Shown piece after piece: positions 19,668 to 52,072 of a stretch of 64,000 bases of DNA; the stretch's first letter is position 1; the number at the start of each line of letters is the position of its first letter. The position numbers were made by a program, and so were the translations under genes. The stretch lies in the NCBI GenBank assembly GCA_025451045.1, contig JANWLD010000001.1, positions 471,468 through 535,467 on the forward strand, in the 5' to 3' direction. The stretch comes from Candidatus Saccharimonadales bacterium. Lineage in GTDB: Bacteria > Patescibacteriota > Saccharimonadia > Saccharimonadales > 2-12-FULL-41-12. The notes under the pieces are model-generated. The model was not told the DNA's origin, ran no database searches, and saw only the letters and a program-made list of their open reading frames with translations.

Positions 19668-19961
19668 ATGAACGGTGACTATACTTCTATTCATGAAATT
19701 GCTAGGTTGCATACAGAACCTTTTGTAAAGGGATTGGATGCTGGTTTAGAAGCAATAAAGCAGCGTGAAGAATTAAGCAGTCCTATTACTTTTGATGATG
19801 TGTCAGCTAGGTCAGATGTTTTTCACATTGCTACTAATAGATTGGCAATGAGCGACGAAATACCCGAGTCTTACGGGCAGACTAAATACGAAATCATGGG
19901 TATGGGAGTTATATCTGCTCTTGAAGAAGCCGCTATAAGAAGTAAAGGAAATGTAGGGTAA
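19668..19961 (+). CDS. Hypothetical small acidic protein (97 aa), family C member 2, inserted between rplB and rpsS
   Basis: AGGAG lies 8 nt upstream, inside the rplB 3' end. The ATG is 3 nt after the rplB stop and the stop is 4 nt before the rpsS ATG. By eye it is a paralog of ORF 8064-8318. Confidence 0.55.
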
Positions 19962-20624: not shown

Positions 20625-21253
20625 TGGGCCAGAAAGTAAATCCGATTAGTTTCCGTCTTCAGGTAAACAAACACTGGAAGAGCAAATGGTTCGCTAATAA
20701 AAAAGACTATGCGGAGTATCTGACACAAGATTTGACGGTCAGGCGGATGATAGTCAAAGAACTGGGCTCCCGCGCGGCTATAAACAAAGTTGACATTGAA
20801 CGCTCGCCTAACTTGGCCACTGTTACCATCACCACGGCCAAAGCCGGTGTTGTTATCGGCAGAGGCGGTACAGGCGCCCAAATACTAAAAGACCGAATTG
20901 AGAAAATCTACGGCGTACCGGTCAGGATTAACATTGAAGAAATCAAAAAAGCGGAACTTTACGCGAAGCTTGTCGCTGAGAATATTGCCCATCAGCTGGA
21001 AAGAAGAATTTCCTTCCGCCGGGCTATTAAACAATCTGCGGCCGCGACCATGCGGGCTGGAGCAAAGGGTGTACGTATCGAAGTAGCCGGCCGTCTTAAT
21101 GGCGCGGATATGAGCCGCCGCGAAAAAGTGGTTGAAGGCAGCGTGCCATTACACACTTTGCGTGCCGATATCGATTACTCGGGTGTCAGGGCCCGCACTA
21201 ATGCCGGTATCATTGGCGTGAAAGTTTGGATTTATAAAGGAGAGGTGCTCTGA
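20624..21253 (+). CDS. rpsC: 30S ribosomal protein S3
   Basis: 209-aa S3 translation (MGQKVNPISFRL..., a KH domain, GRLNGADMSR). Confidence 0.97.
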   Translation: MGQKVNPISFRLQVNKHWKSKWFANKKDYAEYLTQDLTVRRMIVKELGSRAAINKVDIERSPNLATVTITTAKAGVVIGRGGTGAQILKDRIEKIYGVPVRINIEEIKKAELYAKLVAENIAHQLERRISFRRAIKQSAAATMRAGAKGVRIEVAGRLNGADMSRREKVVEGSVPLHTLRADIDYSGVRARTNAGIIGVKVWIYKGEVL

Positions 21254-21378
21254 TGTTCCGCTTCACTACACACCAGGTTATAGGTTACAGGTTACAGGTT
21301 ATAGTTAAGACAAACCATCTAGCCCCTTGCACCTATAGCCTGATCCCTAAAGCGACCGAAGGGAGCTTTCCATGCTGA
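21253..21378 (+). repeat. Family A structured repeat, copy A1 (divergent), containing an open 41-codon mini-cistron
   Basis: The ATG overlaps the rpsC TGA (TGATG). The frame is open to a TGA at 21376-21378, overlapping the rplP ATG (21372) by 7 nt. Peptide: [41 protein letters not shown]. It is homologous to the copies at 24072, 25606 and 29631. Confidence 0.85.
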
Positions 21379-21788
21379 TTCCGAAACGCCAGAAGCACCG
21401 ACGAGTGATGAAAGGTCGTATCAAAGGCCCTGCTACCAGTGGCAATACCATTGCCTTTGGCAGCTATGCGCTGCAGTCTATGGGCCAAGACCGGGTTACC
21501 AGCCGCCAGATAGAATCAGCTCGCCAGGCGATGACCCGCTATATCAAACGAGGCGGTAAGATCTGGATAAGGATTTTCCCTCATACTCCTGTTACTAAAA
21601 AACCGCTGGGCCTTAAGATGGGCGGCGGCAAAGGCTCTCCTGAATACTTTGTAGCAAAGGTACGCAAAGGTACAGTATTGTTTGAAATGCAAGGCGTTTC
21701 CGAGGAAACAGCCCGCGAAGCCATGAGGCTGGCTGCCCACAAATTACCGATAAAGACCAGGTTTATTGTCAGAGAGGGCGAAACATGA
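21372..21788 (+). CDS. rplP: 50S ribosomal protein L16
   Basis: 138-aa L16 translation ([11 protein letters not shown]...). Confidence 0.97.
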
Positions 21789-21919
21789 ATCCCGTAGTAG
21801 ATCTCCTAGAACTGAAGTTGAGCAAGCTGTTTTTGTATGGCCGAGTGTCGGTACGTTATTCAGTTTTGTATATTTTTAATCTTCCTTATGGAATAACTAG
21901 GAGGCTCACTACAGGATGA
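21785..21919 (+). repeat. Family B structured repeat, copy B1, containing an open 44-codon mini-cistron
   Basis: ATGA overlap with the rplP stop and ATGA overlap with the rpmC start. Peptide: [44 protein letters not shown]. Terminal arms 21791-21809 and 21897-21915 are complementary, and the 3' arm contains the rpmC AGGAGG. Confidence 0.85.
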
Positions 21920-22116
21920 AAATAGCCGAGATACGCAAATTAGAGACCAATCAACTGATAAAAAGCGTGGATGAAGTAAGGGTTGAAATAGCCAAACTGC
22001 GACGCAGTATCCATATGGGTGAAACCAGCAATGTCCGGATGATACGCGCCAAGCGCAAACAGCTAGCTCGTATGCTAACCGTTATGAGCGAACAACTTGA
22101 GAAGGAGAAAGTATAA
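21916..22116 (+). CDS. rpmC: 50S ribosomal protein L29
   Basis: 66-aa L29-like translation in the conserved position. Confidence 0.93.
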   Translation: MKIAEIRKLETNQLIKSVDEVRVEIAKLRRSIHMGETSNVRMIRAKRKQLARMLTVMSEQLEKEKV

Positions 22117-22509
22117 ATGGGTAAGACATTAGTAGGGACTGTAAGTTCAGTCGCGCCGAATAAGACCATAGTAATTGCTGTTAGTACCCGAAAAACCCAT
22201 CCTATTTACAAAAAACAGTACAAAGTCACTACTAAATTCATGGCTCATGACGAAGAAAATTCGTGTAAAGTCGGTGACCTTGTCAGCATTGTCGAAACGC
22301 GGCCGATTTCTGCTAGAAAACGCTTCAAATTGGAAAAGATTTTGGAACACGCAAGGTTGAGCAAAGATGATTTGAAGGTTATGAATACGGACGAACCCGA
22401 AAAGAAAGCAGACAAGCCGTCAGAAAAAGTGGAGAAGAAGGATTCAACCGAAAAAACTGAGGATAAAGCGGATAAAAAGGCTTCATCGGACAAGGAAAAG
22501 GGCAAATGA
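22117..22509 (+). CDS. rpsQ: 30S ribosomal protein S17 with K/D/E-rich C-terminal tail
   Basis: S17 core (GTVSS...KTIVIAV...YKKQYKV), followed by a low-complexity tail of about 50 aa. Confidence 0.93.
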
Positions 22510-22874
22510 TACAACAGGAATCCCGAGTACTGGTTTGTGATAACAGCGGCGCGAAAGAACTATTGTGCATTCGTGTACTTGGTGGCACTAAACGCCGCTA
22601 TGCCCGAGTTGGCGATATTATCGTAGCCACCGTGAAACAGGCCAACCCCAGCGGTAATGTCAAGAAAAAGACGGTCGTGAGGGCGGTAATCGTGCGAACC
22701 AAACATTCTATCAAGCGTAAAGATGGCTCGACCATTTCTTTTGACGATAACGCCGCGGTGATAATAGGTGAAGATAGACTACCGAGAGCTACCCGTATCT
22801 TTGGTCCGGTACCGCGTGAACTGCGGGACCAAGGCTACAGCAAGATAATTAGCTTAGCGCCGGAGGTACTATGA
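22506..22874 (+). CDS. rplN: 50S ribosomal protein L14
   Basis: 122-aa L14 translation ([17 protein letters not shown]). Confidence 0.97.
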
Positions 22875-23215
22875 GTAAGCTAATAGCTAATAAGGTGCAT
22901 AAAATCAGGCTGAAAAAAGGCGACAAAGTAATAGTATTGTCCGGTAAGTACAAGAGCGAAACTGGTACTGTCCAAGCTACCCACCCCAAAGAGAACAAAG
23001 TAACCGTCGAAGGTATAAATATCGTCAAAAAAGCAGTCAAGCCAAACCGTCAGCATCCGCAGGGAGCTATAGTTGAAATCACCAAACCGCTGTGGGTTAG
23101 CAAAGTAGCGATTGTCGAACCAACTAGCAAGAAACCCAGCCGCATCGGCTATAAGCTGTCCAAAGCGGGCGAGAAAACCCGCGTGTTTAAACGAAACGGA
23201 AAGGAGATAAAGTAA
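22871..23215 (+). CDS. rplX: 50S ribosomal protein L24
   Basis: 114-aa protein with a KOW-containing L24-like translation ([14 protein letters not shown]). Confidence 0.93.
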
Positions 23216-23796
23216 TGGCTGAAGCAACTAATACTACCGCACAAGATACTGTCCGCTTGAAAAAACTTTATAACGAGCAGATCTCCTCTGAGCTAAAAGA
23301 AGAACTTGGCCTTAAAAACATCCACCAAGTACCAAAACTGGAGAAGATAGTAGTTAACATCGGGCTTGGCAAGGCCAAGGACGACAAACGGATGTTTGAA
23401 GTAGCTAACAATACGCTTTTGAAAGTTACCGGCCAAAAAGCCCAGGAAACTTACGCCCGGATGAGCATCGCGACATTCAAACTGCGCGAAGGTAACAAAG
23501 TCGGCCTTAAGGTAACTTTGCGCGGAGAGCGGATGTACGAATTTTTAGACCGGCTTATCAACATCGTGTTACCGAGACTGCGTGATTTCCATGGAGTCAG
23601 CAATAAATCTTTCGATGGCCAGGGCAATTACAGTATCGGAATCGTTGAACAATCGATTTTCCCGGAATTATCCTTTGAAGAAACATCGGTACCGCACGGT
23701 ATGCAGTTGATAATCGTCACCGATTCGCATAACGTAGAGCACAATAAACAGCTATTAATTAAATTCGGTATGCCTTTCGAGAAAGGGGACAAATAG
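23215..23796 (+). CDS. rplE: 50S ribosomal protein L5
   Basis: 193-aa L5-like translation in the conserved position. Confidence 0.95.
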   Translation: MAEATNTTAQDTVRLKKLYNEQISSELKEELGLKNIHQVPKLEKIVVNIGLGKAKDDKRMFEVANNTLLKVTGQKAQETYARMSIATFKLREGNKVGLKVTLRGERMYEFLDRLINIVLPRLRDFHGVSNKSFDGQGNYSIGIVEQSIFPELSFEETSVPHGMQLIIVTDSHNVEHNKQLLIKFGMPFEKGDK

Positions 23797-24066
23797 ATGG
23801 CTAAGAAATCAATCGTTAACAGGGACGAAAAACGTAAGAAGATGATAGCTAAATATGCCAAAAAACGAGCTGAAATGAAACAGGCTGGAGACCTTGTCGG
23901 CCTTCATCTTCTGCCTCGTAATTCATCCCCTACCCGGTTCAAGAACCGCTGTAGTGAGACCGGCCGCCCGCGAGCCTACATGCGCACCTTCGGCTTATCG
24001 AGGATTTCTTTTAGGGAACACGCGTCAAAAGGTGAAATACCCGGAGTAACGAAAGGAAGTTGGTAA
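23797..24066 (+). CDS. rpsN: 30S ribosomal protein S14 (long, Cys-less form)
   Basis: 89-aa S14 translation ending ...GVTKGSW, with no CxxC pairs. Confidence 0.95.
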
Positions 24067-24071
24067 TATAG

Positions 24072-24191
24072 ATGTTCCGCTTCACTACACATCAGGTTAC
24101 AGGTTATAGGTTACAGGTTATAGCCAAGATAAACTTTCTAACCCCTAGCCCCTATAACCTAACCCCTAAAGCGACAGAAAGGAGCACCTAA
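24072..24191 (+). repeat. Family A structured repeat, copy A2, containing an open 39-codon mini-cistron
   Basis: The ATG lies 5 nt after the rpsN TAA, and the TAA at 24189-24191 abuts the rpsH ATG. Peptide: MFRFTTHQVTGYRLQVIAKINFLTPSPYNLTPKATERST. There is a perfect 10-bp stem between 24101-24110 and 24151-24160. Confidence 0.88.
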
Positions 24192-24587
24192 ATGGTATCC
24201 ACAGATCCAGTTTCAGACATGCTGACCAGGCTGCGCAATGCGATTGCCGTTGGCAAGGCTGATGTCAGTTTGCCACATTCGAACATCAAGCAGTCGGTCG
24301 CTGAACTGCTAAAGAAAAGCGGCTTCATCGACGAAGTAAAAGTTGACGGAACCGGCATTGATAAGAAAGTGCTGATAAAAATTAATCCAAAGAGCGAAAA
24401 CGCGCGCATTACCGAGATAGCGCGACTGAGCCGTCCCGGCCGGCGCTTGTACGCCAAGGCCAAGGACATTCCAGTGGTCATGCAGGGCCGCGGACTGGTC
24501 ATAATTTCTACCTCCAAAGGTATTATGACCGGTGAAGAAGCTAAAAAAGCCAAAATCGGCGGAGAGTTAATCTGCAAGGTTTATTAA
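24192..24587 (+). CDS. rpsH: 30S ribosomal protein S8
   Basis: 131-aa S8 translation (DPVSDMLTRLRNA). Confidence 0.97.
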   Translation: MVSTDPVSDMLTRLRNAIAVGKADVSLPHSNIKQSVAELLKKSGFIDEVKVDGTGIDKKVLIKINPKSENARITEIARLSRPGRRLYAKAKDIPVVMQGRGLVIISTSKGIMTGEEAKKAKIGGELICKVY

Positions 24588-25120
24588 TGAGTAGAATTGG
24601 AAAACAACCAGTCAAAATACCGTCAGGCGTCACAGTGGATGTGAAAGACGATGCGATAACTGTCAACGGTTCAAAGGGTTCGTTGACCCAATTCACTATG
24701 CCCCAGGTTAAGGTAGTTCAGGAAAATGATGAACTGGTTTTTCAGCCGAACGATGACGAGGCTCGCTCGAAGCAGGGTTTGATGCGGACACTTGTCCAAA
24801 ATATGGTTACCGGTGTTAGCGAAGGTTTCGAAAAGAAGCTGGAAGTCAACGGCGTCGGCTTTAGGGTCAACCTTGCCGGCCAAGATCTGAAGATGTATCT
24901 TGGATATTCGCACGAGGTTGTCTACAAGATCCCCGAAGGCATCAATGTCAAAGTCGAACAGAACATCATAACCGTCAGTGGTATCAGCCGCCAACAGGTC
25001 GGACAGGTTGCCGCCGAAATACGGTCATTGAAAAAGCCAGAACCCTACAAAGGCAAAGGCATAAAGTACGTAGACGAACGGATTATCCGAAAAAGCGGTA
25101 AGTCAGGCAAGGAAAAATAA
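24587..25120 (+). CDS. rplF: 50S ribosomal protein L6
   Basis: 177-aa L6 translation (MSRIGKQPVKIPSGV). Confidence 0.97.
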   Translation: MSRIGKQPVKIPSGVTVDVKDDAITVNGSKGSLTQFTMPQVKVVQENDELVFQPNDDEARSKQGLMRTLVQNMVTGVSEGFEKKLEVNGVGFRVNLAGQDLKMYLGYSHEVVYKIPEGINVKVEQNIITVSGISRQQVGQVAAEIRSLKKPEPYKGKGIKYVDERIIRKSGKSGKEK

Positions 25121-25255
25121 ATGAGTCCCGTAGTAGATCTCCAAGAACATTCGTTGAATAAACTGTATTTAACTGATAAGCTGTCTATCCATAGTCCAGC
25201 TTTATTAATTTCTAATGCTCTTTGCGGAGCAACTTGGAGGCTCACTACGGGATGA
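25121..25255 (+). repeat. Family B structured repeat, copy B2, containing an open 44-codon mini-cistron
   Basis: The ATG directly follows the rplF TAA, and the TGA overlaps the rplR ATG (ATGA). Peptide: MSPVVDLQEHSLNKLYLTDKLSIHSPALLISNALCGATWRLTTG. Terminal arms 25126-25145 and 25233-25252 are complementary. Confidence 0.85.
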
Positions 25256-25605
25256 GTAGATTAGTGTCAAAGCGTAATAACATAACCAGGAGAAAGAACC
25301 GGGTCAGAACCATGATCCGGACTAATTCAGGGCATCCCCGCTTATCCGTTAATATCAGTAACCGGCATATCCTAGCCCAGGTGATAGATGACAGCGCCCA
25401 TAAGACATTGATATCAGTCTCAACCGAAAAGCAGGCCTATAAAGGCAATATGACTGAAAAAGCCGGCTTGGTGGGCAAGGAAATTGCTGAAAAAGCCAAA
25501 GCCAAGAAAATCAAACAAGTTGTTTTAGACAGGGGCTCTAGACTGTATCATGGCCGTATCAAAGTCCTGGCAGACGCGGCCCGCGAGGAAGGATTGGTAA
25601 TATAG
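25252..25605 (+). CDS. rplR: 50S ribosomal protein L18
   Basis: The L18 translation starts MSRLVSKRNNITRRKNR. The ATG at 25252 is preferred over the track start at 25222 because it sits 11 nt after GGAGG, matching the homologous B1/rpmC junction. Confidence 0.93.
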   Translation: MSRLVSKRNNITRRKNRVRTMIRTNSGHPRLSVNISNRHILAQVIDDSAHKTLISVSTEKQAYKGNMTEKAGLVGKEIAEKAKAKKIKQVVLDRGSRLYHGRIKVLADAAREEGLVI

Positions 25606-25725
25606 ATGTTCCGCTTCACTACACATCAGGTTACAGGTTATAGGTTACAGGTTATAGCCAAGATAAACTTTCTAACCCCTAGCCCCTATAACCTAACCCC
25701 TAAAGCGAAAGAATGGAGCGCATAA
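25606..25725 (+). repeat. Family A structured repeat, copy A3, containing an open 39-codon mini-cistron
   Basis: The ATG directly follows the rplR TAG, and the TAA overlaps the rpsE ATG (TAATG). Peptide: MFRFTTHQVTGYRLQVIAKINFLTPSPYNLTPKAKEWSA. A 115-nt stretch is identical to A2. Confidence 0.88.
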
Positions 25726-26330
25726 TGGCTGAGATGAACAGAAGAAAAGATATTAAGCCGCTAGAGCTGGAAGAGAAGCAATTTGAAGAAAGGGTCGTGC
25801 ATATCGACCGCGTGGCCCGCGTGGTCAAAGGCGGACGGCGCTTCCGGTTCCGTGCCCTCGTGGTGGTAGGTGACAAGAAGGGACGGGTAGGCGTAGCTAC
25901 CGCCAAAGGCGCGGATGTTACCGCGGCCGTAGCCAAAGCAGTCGACGTGGCCAAGAAGAACCTGACTACTTTAGTACTTTATAAAGGCACTCTGCCGCAT
26001 GAAGTTCAGGCCAAAGTTGGCGGTTCGAACATTCTGTTGAAGCCTGCCAGCCCCGGAACCGGTATTATCGCCGGCGGCGTGGTACGTACGTTACTTGAAG
26101 TCGGCGGTGTCAGCAATGCCCTCTCCAAATCTCTCGGTTCGAGTAACAAGGTCAATACCGCCTATGCGACGCTGAAAGCGCTCAAAAGCGTAGTGCCAGC
26201 AGACAAGTGGATTACCAGAATCCAGACAAAAGCCAATAGTCCCAAGCTAAAAGCTAAAATAGAAAATCCGGAAAAGAAGACAGAGAAGAAAGTAACTGCC
26301 AAACCGAAAAAAACGGAAAGTAAGAAGTGA
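25725..26330 (+). CDS. rpsE: 30S ribosomal protein S5 with K-rich C-terminal tail
   Basis: S5 translation (VVHIDRVARVVKGGRRFRFRALVVVGD). The ATG at 25725 is preferred over the in-frame ATG at 25713, by analogy with the other family A junctions where GGAG precedes the start. Confidence 0.93.
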   Translation: MAEMNRRKDIKPLELEEKQFEERVVHIDRVARVVKGGRRFRFRALVVVGDKKGRVGVATAKGADVTAAVAKAVDVAKKNLTTLVLYKGTLPHEVQAKVGGSNILLKPASPGTGIIAGGVVRTLLEVGGVSNALSKSLGSSNKVNTAYATLKALKSVVPADKWITRIQTKANSPKLKAKIENPEKKTEKKVTAKPKKTESKK

Positions 26331-29177: not shown

Positions 29178-29630
29178 ATGGCAGAAACTGATACCAAAAC
29201 TAAGGAAGAAGTAACTACCGAAACTACGGACGTTGAAGCTAAACCGGCGGCCAAGCCGAAGAAGAAAAAGGTTAAACGCAATGTACCGCTGGGCCAAGTT
29301 CATGTACTGGCGACCTTCAATAACACCATCGTTACAGTTACTGACTCAAACGGCGGCGTGTTGACAAATTCTAGTGCCGGCGCTTGTGGCTTTCGCGGCA
29401 GCAAAAAAGGCACGGCTTATGCCGCGCAGGTTGCTGCTGAAAAAGCAGTTGAAGAAGCAAAACAACGTTTTGGACTTAGCAAAGTACATGTCTTTATCAA
29501 AGGTATCGGTCTGGGGCGCGAGGCAGCTGTCAGAGTTTTAGGTTCAGCTAACATCGCCGTCGAGTCCATACAGGACGTTACCGGCGTGCCGCATGGCGGC
29601 GTACGGCCGAGAAAGGCAAGAAGAGTCTAG
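29178..29630 (+). CDS. rpsK: 30S ribosomal protein S11 with ~30-aa charged N-terminal extension
   Basis: S11 core (GQVHVLATFNNTIVTVTD...GFRGSKKGT). Confidence 0.95.
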   Translation: MAETDTKTKEEVTTETTDVEAKPAAKPKKKKVKRNVPLGQVHVLATFNNTIVTVTDSNGGVLTNSSAGACGFRGSKKGTAYAAQVAAEKAVEEAKQRFGLSKVHVFIKGIGLGREAAVRVLGSANIAVESIQDVTGVPHGGVRPRKARRV

Positions 29631-29753
29631 ATGATGTTCCGCTTCACTACACATCAGGTTACAGGTTATAGGTTACAGGTTATAGCTAAGACAAACCCTC
29701 TAACCCCTAGCCCCTATAACCTAACCCCTAAAGCGACCGGAGGGAGCTTCTGA
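29631..29753 (+). repeat. Family A structured repeat, copy A4, containing an open 40-codon mini-cistron
   Basis: ATGATG directly follows the rpsK TAG, and the TGA overlaps the rpsD ATG (TGATG). Peptide: MMFRFTTHQVTGYRLQVIAKTNPLTPSPYNLTPKATGGSF. Confidence 0.88.
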
Positions 29754-51877: not shown

Positions 51878-51982
51878 GTCGCAAGGCCAAAGGTGTTAAA
51901 ATATTGATAGTTACCCGAAGACAGCGACGTTGTGAAAACACTTGAAAAAGTCGCCGAGGCGAATAAATAAGCTCTCAATAAG

Positions 51983-52008
51983 TCTTTGGTTTACGCCAAA
52001 GATTTTTT
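51983..52008 (+). terminator. Hairpin plus T6 in the rplJ leader (candidate L10-leader attenuator)
   Basis: TCTTTGG (51983-51989), loop TTTACG, CCAAAGA (51996-52002), then TTTTTT (52003-52008), located 65 nt upstream of the rplJ ATG. Confidence 0.55.
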
Positions 52009-52072
52009 AATGGTAACTGCTTTTGACCAAGGTCGAAGTCACAAGTTAACAGATAAAAGGAGAAGCCGCACT

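Follow-up and report, generated by a model that had tools for sequence, protein, structure and literature searches.

Two 135-nt repeats, B1 and B2, lie at gene junctions of the S10/spc ribosomal-protein cluster in a 64,000-nt stretch of a Candidatus Saccharimonadales genome (assembly GCA_025451045.1, contig JANWLD010000001.1, positions 471,468 to 535,467; the whole stretch is called the window and numbered from its first nucleotide). The cluster is on the + strand, as are all features given below. B1 and B2 were found to be insertions resembling MITEs (miniature transposable elements with inverted repeats), of a family dispersed in Patescibacteria, the candidate phyla radiation (CPR). The favored reading, with a probability of about 0.55, is that the predicted pass-through open reading frame (ORF) of these insertions relays ribosomes and preserves translational coupling. 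The mobile insertion taken by itself was held to be highly probable.

Structure and insertion sites of B1 and B2

B1 (21785-21919) and B2 (25121-25255) aligned without gaps over 135 nt each, with 95/135 nucleotides identical, and each encoded an ORF of 44 codons, with 22/44 residues identical; the coordinates, lengths and residue identity given in a preliminary description of this DNA were reproduced. The inverted-repeat relation of the ends, the flanking direct repeats and the origin of the ATGA overlaps in a duplication had escaped that description. The 17-mer TCCCGTAGTAGATCTCC and the 20-mer GGAGGCTCACTACRGGATGA were confined to B1 and B2 in the 64 kb when 3 mismatches were allowed, compared with expected numbers of 0.10 and 0.00, respectively, and chance was ruled out as the source of the similarity. 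The element proper was 127 nt in both cases, with imperfect terminal inverted repeats of the form T-CCCGTAGTAGATCTCC ... GGAGGCTCACTACRGG-A, and the conserved ends (TCCCGTAGTAGATCTCC... and ...GGAGGCTCACTACRGGA) were inverted repeats of each other. It occupied 21790..21916 in B1 (T + CCCG...CAGG + A, between rplP and rpmC) and 25126..25252 in B2 (between rplF and rplR). The limits of B1 were set by the empty site in loci L044 and L045, the rule for the terminal pyrimidine and purine (Y/R), and the 4-bp repeat; those of B2 were set by the empty site in L044 (GGC TAATGAGTAGG).

In L044, the closest relative fetched (L16 92% identical), rplP and rpmC overlapped by ATGA (GAATC ATGAAA ATCGCG) and rplF and rplR by TAATG, and both junctions were without the element. 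The rplP/rpmC junction was also empty in L045 and L046, neither of which extends to rplF/rplR. The direct repeats flanking the insertions were ATGAAT/ATGAAA for B1 and ATGAGT/ATGAGT for B2. In B1, the left TGAA duplication (21786..21789) formed the duplicated ATG together with the host A at 21785 and held the rplP stop TGA, while the right TGAA (21917..21920) rebuilt the rpmC ATG together with the last base of the element (A, 21916) and supplied the TGA ending the ORF (21785..21919). In B2, the left TGAG duplication (25122..25125) placed the duplicated ATG (25121-25123) directly after the rplF TAA; the right TGAG (25253..25256) gave the rplR ATG (25252-25254) and the stop TGA (25253-25255) of the ORF (25121..25255). 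Stop/start overlaps of the ATGA type were thus located at 21785-21788, 21916-21919 and 25252-25255, and TAA-ATG at 25118-25123. The ATGA sharing noted earlier was also confirmed, as the ATG of B1 overlaps the rplP stop and both ORF stops overlap the downstream starts (21916-21919 and 25252-25255). The ATGA overlaps at the two ends of B1 exist because the insertion duplicated the native rplP/rpmC overlap.

A third locus was provided by the start of orn, where the element was present in L014, L048 and L002, and the site was empty in L049, L050 and L047 (Orn 88% identical). The repeat was TGAG in L002 and TGAA in L014 and L048, and each agreed with the second codon of its own gene; therefore, repeated independent insertion at a hot spot is favored at orn over ancient retention. 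Across the family, the left and right flanking hexamers matched at 211/270 positions, compared with 112 when the pairs were permuted. The base adjacent to the element was always Y on the left and always R on the right, and this Y...R rule was kept in both orientations. Positions 2-5 of the hexamers matched in 34-40/45 copies, and the outer positions mismatched 14-17 times compared with 5-11 times for the inner ones. These data are described most economically by the form Y-CCCG...CGGG-R, the target being duplicated over 4 bp (TGAA, TGAG, TATA, CTTG, TCAA and others). A duplication of 5 bp, or one of 6 bp that has decayed at its ends, was less likely, given the outer mismatches and the fact that the extra base would have to switch ends with orientation. 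The 4-bp duplication was checked against the empty sites at B1, B2 and the orn locus, and with this length the last base of B1 is read as the A in the start codon of rpmC. The element had the structural features that define MITEs, namely terminal inverted repeats, a target duplication, a short length without a transposase gene, and dispersed copies differing in presence between relatives; the sole ORF in the elements was the pass-through ORF of 43-45 codons. The enzyme moving it would presumably be a DDE transposase.

The inverted-repeat arms were predicted to form a terminal stem of about 20 bp, with minimum free energies of -38.5 (B1) and -50.5 kcal/mol (B2) and z-scores of -2.6 and -5.5, respectively. 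The stem consisted of an 8-bp outer helix (CCCGTAGT/ACTACGGG), a conserved 3x3 mismatch (AGA/CTC) and a subfamily-specific inner helix of about 8 bp. In B1, the 5' arm (CCCGTAGT / AGA loop / TCTCCTAG) lay at 21791..21809 and the 3' arm at 21897..21915; in B2, the arms lay at 25127..25145 and 25233..25251. The 3' arm contained GGAGG (21900-21904 in B1, 25236-25240 in B2), located 11 nt upstream of the downstream ATG. This GGAGG was buried in the predicted stem, as were two bases of the true AUG: its A and U paired with the final two bases of the flank upstream. The duplicated ATG remained outside the stem. A small subterminal hairpin adjoined the 3' arm in B1 (TTCC TTAT GGAA, 21882..21893), and its counterpart in B2 was GCTC TTTGCG GAGC (25217..25230). 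This hairpin covaried, being TTCC..GGAA in B1, GCTC..GAGC in B2, and GTTGC..GCAAC or GTCGC..GCGAC in other copies. The element centres gave no RNA structure (z about 0 or positive), and a structured RNA in the centre was rejected. No Rfam match reached the gathering score at B1 or B2 in a search of the whole window, and none was found at E<=1 in 21200-25800. The promoter and terminator scan placed no site within B1 or B2.

A dispersed family in Patescibacteria

Related copies were collected from metagenomes with the end pattern and from species-representative genomes with a relaxed pattern. In total, 43 related loci (8 metagenome and 35 species-representative genome) were obtained in more than 25 assemblies, and several genomes had 2-4 copies with exact ends. 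The hosts were Saccharibacteria, Uhrbacteria, Lloydbacteria, Kaiserbacteria, Zambryskibacteria and Nomurabacteria, and all loci except one were labelled Patescibacteria/CPR or 'bacterium'. The exception, L034 (CAZHJU010000074.1), was labelled 'uncultured Bordetella sp.'; it was about 99% identical to the Saccharibacteria contig L021 over the element and flanks and is probably mis-binned. A scan of viral contigs gave 0 matches. Locus L048 was located via gene orthology, not by pattern, and is counted separately below (17 pattern-found start-codon copies; 18 with L048).

The 45 unique copies were 100-130 nt in length. The invariance of the outer 11 nt of each arm proves nothing because these positions were fixed by the search pattern. 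The 8 positions of the inner helix, which were free of this constraint, were paired in 76% of cases compared with 34-49% in slid controls (44 copies). All 8 pairs varied on both sides between subfamilies, and the covariation was 0.291 compared with 0.118, a value that 0/500 shuffles reached. About 30 nt at each end were conserved, and the centre was variable. The 62-nt centres of the 122-nt copies had a mean identity of 30.6%, compared with 27.6% when shuffled. Even within a single genome, the arms were 93-97% identical and the centres 40%. The genes orn, gap and uvrA carried the element in different genomes, with arms 73-93% identical against 38% at third codon positions of the adjacent genes. 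The subfamilies with C...G ends were intergenic, at GYNNRC-type hexamers, and some were tandem with a common hexamer. Other subfamilies were without GGAG. The signature YCCCGTAGT...ACTACGGGR can be used to catalogue this mobile element of Patescibacteria. In the literature searched, no paper linked MITEs to Saccharibacteria or Patescibacteria or gave an account of this element. MITE surveys (including PMC10969869) made no mention of Patescibacteria or of insertion at start codons, and the motif strings matched primers alone.

Several loci had unusual arrangements. Tandem or abutted copies with one common hexamer (GCAAGC, GTATAC) were observed in L004 (979-1194), L005 (1062-1277), L015 (7228-7364) and L033 (7212-7340). 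The abutted copies had an 11-6-11 palindromic junction resembling a recombinase core site, and L015 was a full copy followed by a solo end. For these abutted ends, a CRISPR-like array, an integron attC and a dif/Xer site were considered and rejected, as single copies showed the short repeat alone and a target without arms. In the Uhrbacteria-type loci L029 (3040-3530) and L016 (3769-4045), the element had a partial sequence like a T arm on one side and, on the other, a duplicated 3' end of a tRNA (GTCTGCCGCTCCA after tRNA-Gly, GTTGACCGCTCCA after tRNA-His), an arrangement that in L029 makes up a 199-nt tandem repeat. In these two loci, tRNA 3' ends may be the target, or the element may be part of a larger mobile unit. 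A 46-nt mini version with the two arms alone and GTCAAC on both flanks was found in L026 (about 1535-1592). A region of about 290 nt in L021 (6075-6366) was rejected as a long variant; it is an inverted duplication starting CCCGTAGTAAA, includes a tRNA 5' end and an N run, and is probably an assembly artefact.

Reading frame at start codons and competing explanations

All 17 unique Saccharibacteria-type copies, and L048 in addition, were located exactly between two ATGNNN hexamers at a gene start, and the duplication was always TGAA or TGAG. Both orientations occurred, and 15/17 pattern-found copies as well as L048 were opposite to the orientation in the window. In both orientations, GGAG(G) preceded the true ATG by 11-12 nt. 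The duplicated ATG had a -10-like box 13-18 nt upstream in 7 copies; others had a Shine-Dalgarno (SD) sequence or an upstream stop. TATAAT-like boxes at this distance were seen before the duplicated ATG in L002, L003, L007/L014, L019, L027, L037 and L039, and before the start at the empty sites of L047 and L049. Boxes placed 13-18 nt before the start imply leaderless genes or leaders of a few nucleotides, and many Saccharimonadales genes may accordingly lack a leader or have a very short one. The bases before the duplicated ATG retain the original initiation context of the gene.

The frame of the duplicated ATG (frame 0) was free of stops in 10/17 unique copies, compared with 2.15 expected by shuffling of the centres (Poisson-binomial P=6e-6). 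The sense frames +1 and +2 were open in 0/17, and for the frames of the flipped element the enrichment lacked significance (6/17 vs 3.28, P=0.09, and 4/17 vs 2.68). Moreover, (length+6) mod 3 was 2 in 13/17 copies, with lengths of 119, 122, 125 and 128 nt and an ORF ending at the TGA that overlaps the true ATG; 8 unique copies were exactly 122 nt despite their saturated centres. All copies whose length would fuse the element to the gene contained stops. L048 was 121 nt with a broken ORF, which gave 10/18 open copies. Since the centres are saturated yet the frame and openness are kept, selection against stops and frameshifts in the orientation of the gene would account for the pattern. It is best read as probable selection on the frame and on the absence of stops, not on the peptide. 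The element therefore offers a testable case of selection on translatability alone, with the peptide unselected.

The preliminary description had proposed a new micro-protein family encoded inside the S10/spc operons. In its favor, there were two ORFs of equal length with 50% identity and five similar peptides in public data. However, a search of 5.8 billion proteins with a peptide profile gave 5 matches, all of the repeat-end type and one of them B1 itself. The residues in common among 20 related ORFs and the 5 database peptides were the ends encoded by the arms (M[NS]PVV[SD]LQ.. and ..SWRSTTG* or ..RRLTTG*), and the centres were no more alike than shuffles. The Nei-Gojobori comparison of B1 and B2 (Sd 11 / Nd 29) gave a dN/dS of 0.80, or 0.64 for the centre taken separately. 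Conservation was lowest at codon position 2 (0.44 identity), which is the reverse of the pattern of a constrained protein. Furthermore, the opposite orientations of the element yield different peptides, the element was missing at orthologous junctions, and 8/18 copies had stops or frameshifts. A conserved micro-protein family was accordingly considered extremely unlikely. For annotation, this means that the ORFs of 43-45 codons are no protein family and that gene callers may pick the wrong start beside the elements.

The other possibility raised at that time, an obligatorily translated structured spacer, held in part. The frame and openness were enriched, and the predicted stem hides the SD sequence and the start; however, the element is dispersed and mobile, it is not specific to S10/spc, and with broken copies present 'obligatory' overstates the case. 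Stops or frameshifts in orthologous junction elements had been named as an observation that would refute both proposals, and this was borne out by half. The orthologous junctions carried no element at all, and 8/18 related start-codon copies were broken.

The subfamily with T...A ends inserts into start codons at A|TGAR. On the left, the host A and TGAR keep the original initiation context, or the stop of the upstream gene, and open an ORF into the element; on the right, the last A of the element and TGAR rebuild the ATG of the gene and create the TGA ending the ORF (ATGA). According to the proposed mechanism, ribosomes due to start the gene, or having just finished rplP or rplF, would initiate at the duplicated ATG and traverse 43-45 codons, by which the stem of about 20 bp over GGAGG and AUG would be melted; they would then terminate on the true start (ATGA) and re-initiate. 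In this manner, the native coupling from rplP to rpmC and from rplF to rplR may be kept, and leaderless genes may stay expressed after insertion. If the relay is true, a transposable element can colonize the tightest sites of a minimal genome, such as stop/start overlaps within operons for ribosomal proteins and leaderless genes at their 5' ends, without breaking expression, the trick being the duplication of the start codon combined with a pass-through ORF preserved in frame. A wider proposal can be put forward tentatively, at somewhat less than even odds. It holds that evolution has made a mobile hairpin family, spread over the Patescibacteria, translationally transparent: the family would home to A|TGAR at starts (leaderless genes and ATGA operon junctions), rebuild the ATG with its own last base, be kept in frame and stop-free for the ribosome relay, and have its ends selected long after insertion. 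The element would then be a portable and possibly regulatory coupling module rather than junk.

Several observations weigh against a ribosome relay. The 8/18 start-codon copies with stops or a shifted frame precede essential-looking genes (gap, uvrA, orn); passage of ribosomes across the element is therefore no strict requirement, and the repeat's own GGAG may suffice. In the commoner orientation, the mRNA stem had C.A mismatches where the orientation of the window has G.U, and the structure is therefore not obviously optimized as RNA. The covariation of the inner helix is expected from paired transposon ends and gives no argument by itself for an RNA function. The near-constant length of 122 nt suggests a constraint beyond the reading frame. 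In addition, the copies were collected with an exact 22-nt end pattern, and the sample is small and skewed to copies with perfect, well-kept ends. The search for an autonomous partner, which covered 356 kb of fetched loci, found no long-range end pair and no non-housekeeping protein recurring beside the elements. Finally, some copies outside Saccharibacteria were tandem or beside duplicated tRNA 3' ends, where simple cut-and-paste fails.

A first alternative view is that the element is an inert, selfish MITE whose ORF is incidental, which survives at starts through its own GGAG at a suitable distance; the downstream gene would be translated independently from that SD sequence, and the hairpin would be at most an RNase III or stability site like those of Correia or ERIC elements. 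The GGAG(G) before the true ATG in both orientations and the 8/18 broken ORFs agree with this view, and the predicted stem with its internal loop resembles RNase III substrates, for which Correia elements are a precedent (PMC10969869). Nevertheless, it does not account for three findings: open frames exceed expectation (10/17 vs 2.15) specifically in the duplicated ATG's sense frame, 13/17 copies share a frame with lengths that differ by steps of 3, and the SD sequence and AUG are placed inside the stem. In addition, other subfamilies are without GGAG. This view was judged unlikely. Alternatively, long-kept copies before housekeeping genes may have been co-opted as a cis-regulatory hairpin (for instance a thermometer, a site for protein binding or a ribosome-flux sensor), and the ends would stay conserved because of this domestication. 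The recurrence at orn, gap and uvrA across genomes, with arms (73-93%) better kept than third positions (38%), is consistent with it, as is the difference between arms (93-97%) and centres (40%) within one genome. However, the element was present in a patchy manner, sites being cleanly empty in closer relatives as well (L047, 88% Orn identity), and TGAG in L002 compared with TGAA in L014/L048 favors independent hot-spot insertions. There was also no Rfam match and no ligand- or protein-binding motif, and the centre was unstructured. Domestication of this kind was regarded as very unlikely.

Two further explanations concern how the element moves or disappears. Mobility through site-specific recombination, not DDE transposition, would bear on movement and not on function once inserted. 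It would fit the tandem copies with a common hexamer (L004, L005, L015, L033), in which the abutted ends (two 11-nt arms with 6 nt between them) are like a tyrosine-recombinase core, and the duplicated 3' end of tRNA-His or tRNA-Gly beside the element in L016 and L029. On the other hand, the target flanks beyond the 4-6 nt repeat were unlike the arms, and the repeats differed per copy (TGAA, TGAG, TATA, CTTG, TCAA and others), as from a staggered cut. No integrase was near the elements in the fetched loci, and the route was considered quite unlikely. An intron-like excision from the RNA at the direct repeats would restore the ATGA junction; the stem brings the ends together, and some copies interrupt an apparent tRNA 3' end. 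However, no ribozyme or intron family matched, the variable centre had no conserved catalytic core, and splicing gives no reason for the enrichment of open frames. This possibility was hardly credible. The relay of ribosomes through the pass-through ORF is preferred over these explanations.

Comparison with known systems and other features of the window

Translational coupling through stop/start overlaps, with upstream ORFs that open a structure, is established in ribosomal-protein operons and in phage MS2. B1 and B2 resemble these cases in their ATGA overlaps and in the downstream SD sequence and AUG, which lie in a predicted stem that an upstream ribosome would open. They differ in that the coupling ORF comes from a mobile insertion and is repeated at unrelated genes. 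Repetitive extragenic palindromes and their doublets (REP/REPIN) are likewise intergenic, hairpin-forming inverted-repeat doublets of about 100 nt with GTAG. REPINs are not known to make target-site duplications, whereas a target duplication was present here. Moreover, the proteins recurring across the fetched loci were syntenic housekeeping genes alone, and neither a recurrent protein like the REP-associated transposase RAYT nor a nearby integrase was seen among them.

The likeness to bacterial MITEs lies in the length of 100-130 nt, the imperfect terminal inverted repeats, the short direct repeat, the dispersed copies, the empty sites and the lack of transposase coding. The present elements were different in that about 30 nt per end were conserved and the centres were unrelated even within one genome. 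In addition, the Saccharibacteria subfamily inserts precisely at the start codon, and no cognate insertion sequence was found in the 356 kb of fetched loci. Rickettsia palindromic elements (RPEs) are palindromic and mobile and are tolerated in translated sequence because they are open in frame (PMC10969869). Tolerance through staying translatable is common to both; however, RPEs sit inside host ORFs and are translated with the host protein as a conserved peptide, while the ORF here is a separate upstream one that stops on the host ATG, no copy in frame with the gene was open, and the peptide was unconserved. The Correia elements of Neisseria and the ERIC/IRU elements of Enterobacteria are hairpins of 100-150 nt that are co-transcribed, including in operons, and their inverted repeats affect mRNA processing and expression (PMC10969869). 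The present elements are similar as transcribed hairpin elements within operons. In contrast, Correia duplicates TA, and its known features include promoters, sites for IHF and cleavage by RNase III, while the duplications here were TGAA, TGAG, TATA, CTTG and others, the ends were CCCGTAGT..., and there was no sequence similarity to either group. Neither Correia nor ERIC has been described with a duplicated start codon or a coupled pass-through ORF. Compared with MITE, RPE, Correia and ERIC elements, the present family is different in its rebuilt duplicated start codon, its separate coupled ORF and its unrelated centres.

The genes next to the insertions are rplP (L16, 21372..21788), upstream of B1 and assigned by PF00252 homologues and synteny with L044; rpmC (L29, 21916..22116), downstream of B1; rplF (L6, 24587..25120), upstream of B2; and rplR (L18, 25252..25605), downstream of B2. 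Alignment with L044 places the true rplR start at the ATG at 25252.

A second group of repeats, Family A, was unrelated to the B elements and consisted of four copies of about 115-130 nt, at 21241-21372 (S3/L16), 24060-24191 (S14/S8), 25594-25725 (L18/S5) and 29622-29753 (S11/S4). All four were missing in L044. Family A replaces the native spacer and SD sequence and brings its own GGAGC, and its centre is a hairpin of the GGTTAYAGG / CCTATAACC type. ORFs of about 40 codons in Family A (such as 21253-21378 and 29631-29753) ended at or overlapped the next start (TGATG, TAATG, TAA-ATG). This hints that they may be an independent parallel for the solution of a pass-through ORF. The open ORFs say little alone, because the copies differed little from the reference copy (86-97% identity), the one at S3/L16 (77%) being the exception.

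Three other features of the window were recorded. An ORF of 97 amino acids (aa) was located between rplB and rpsS (19668-19961), and L045 had a 106-aa ORF without Pfam match at that place; the 97-aa ORF may be an extra conserved gene in the S10 operon of this lineage. The ORF at the position of rplW (L23; 18268-18807) was 179 aa compared with 120 aa in L045 and contained Lys/Ala-rich repeats (families D2 and D6). At 51897-52017, upstream of the rplJ region, the Rfam family L10_leader was matched with 45.3 bits, compared with a gathering score of 44.

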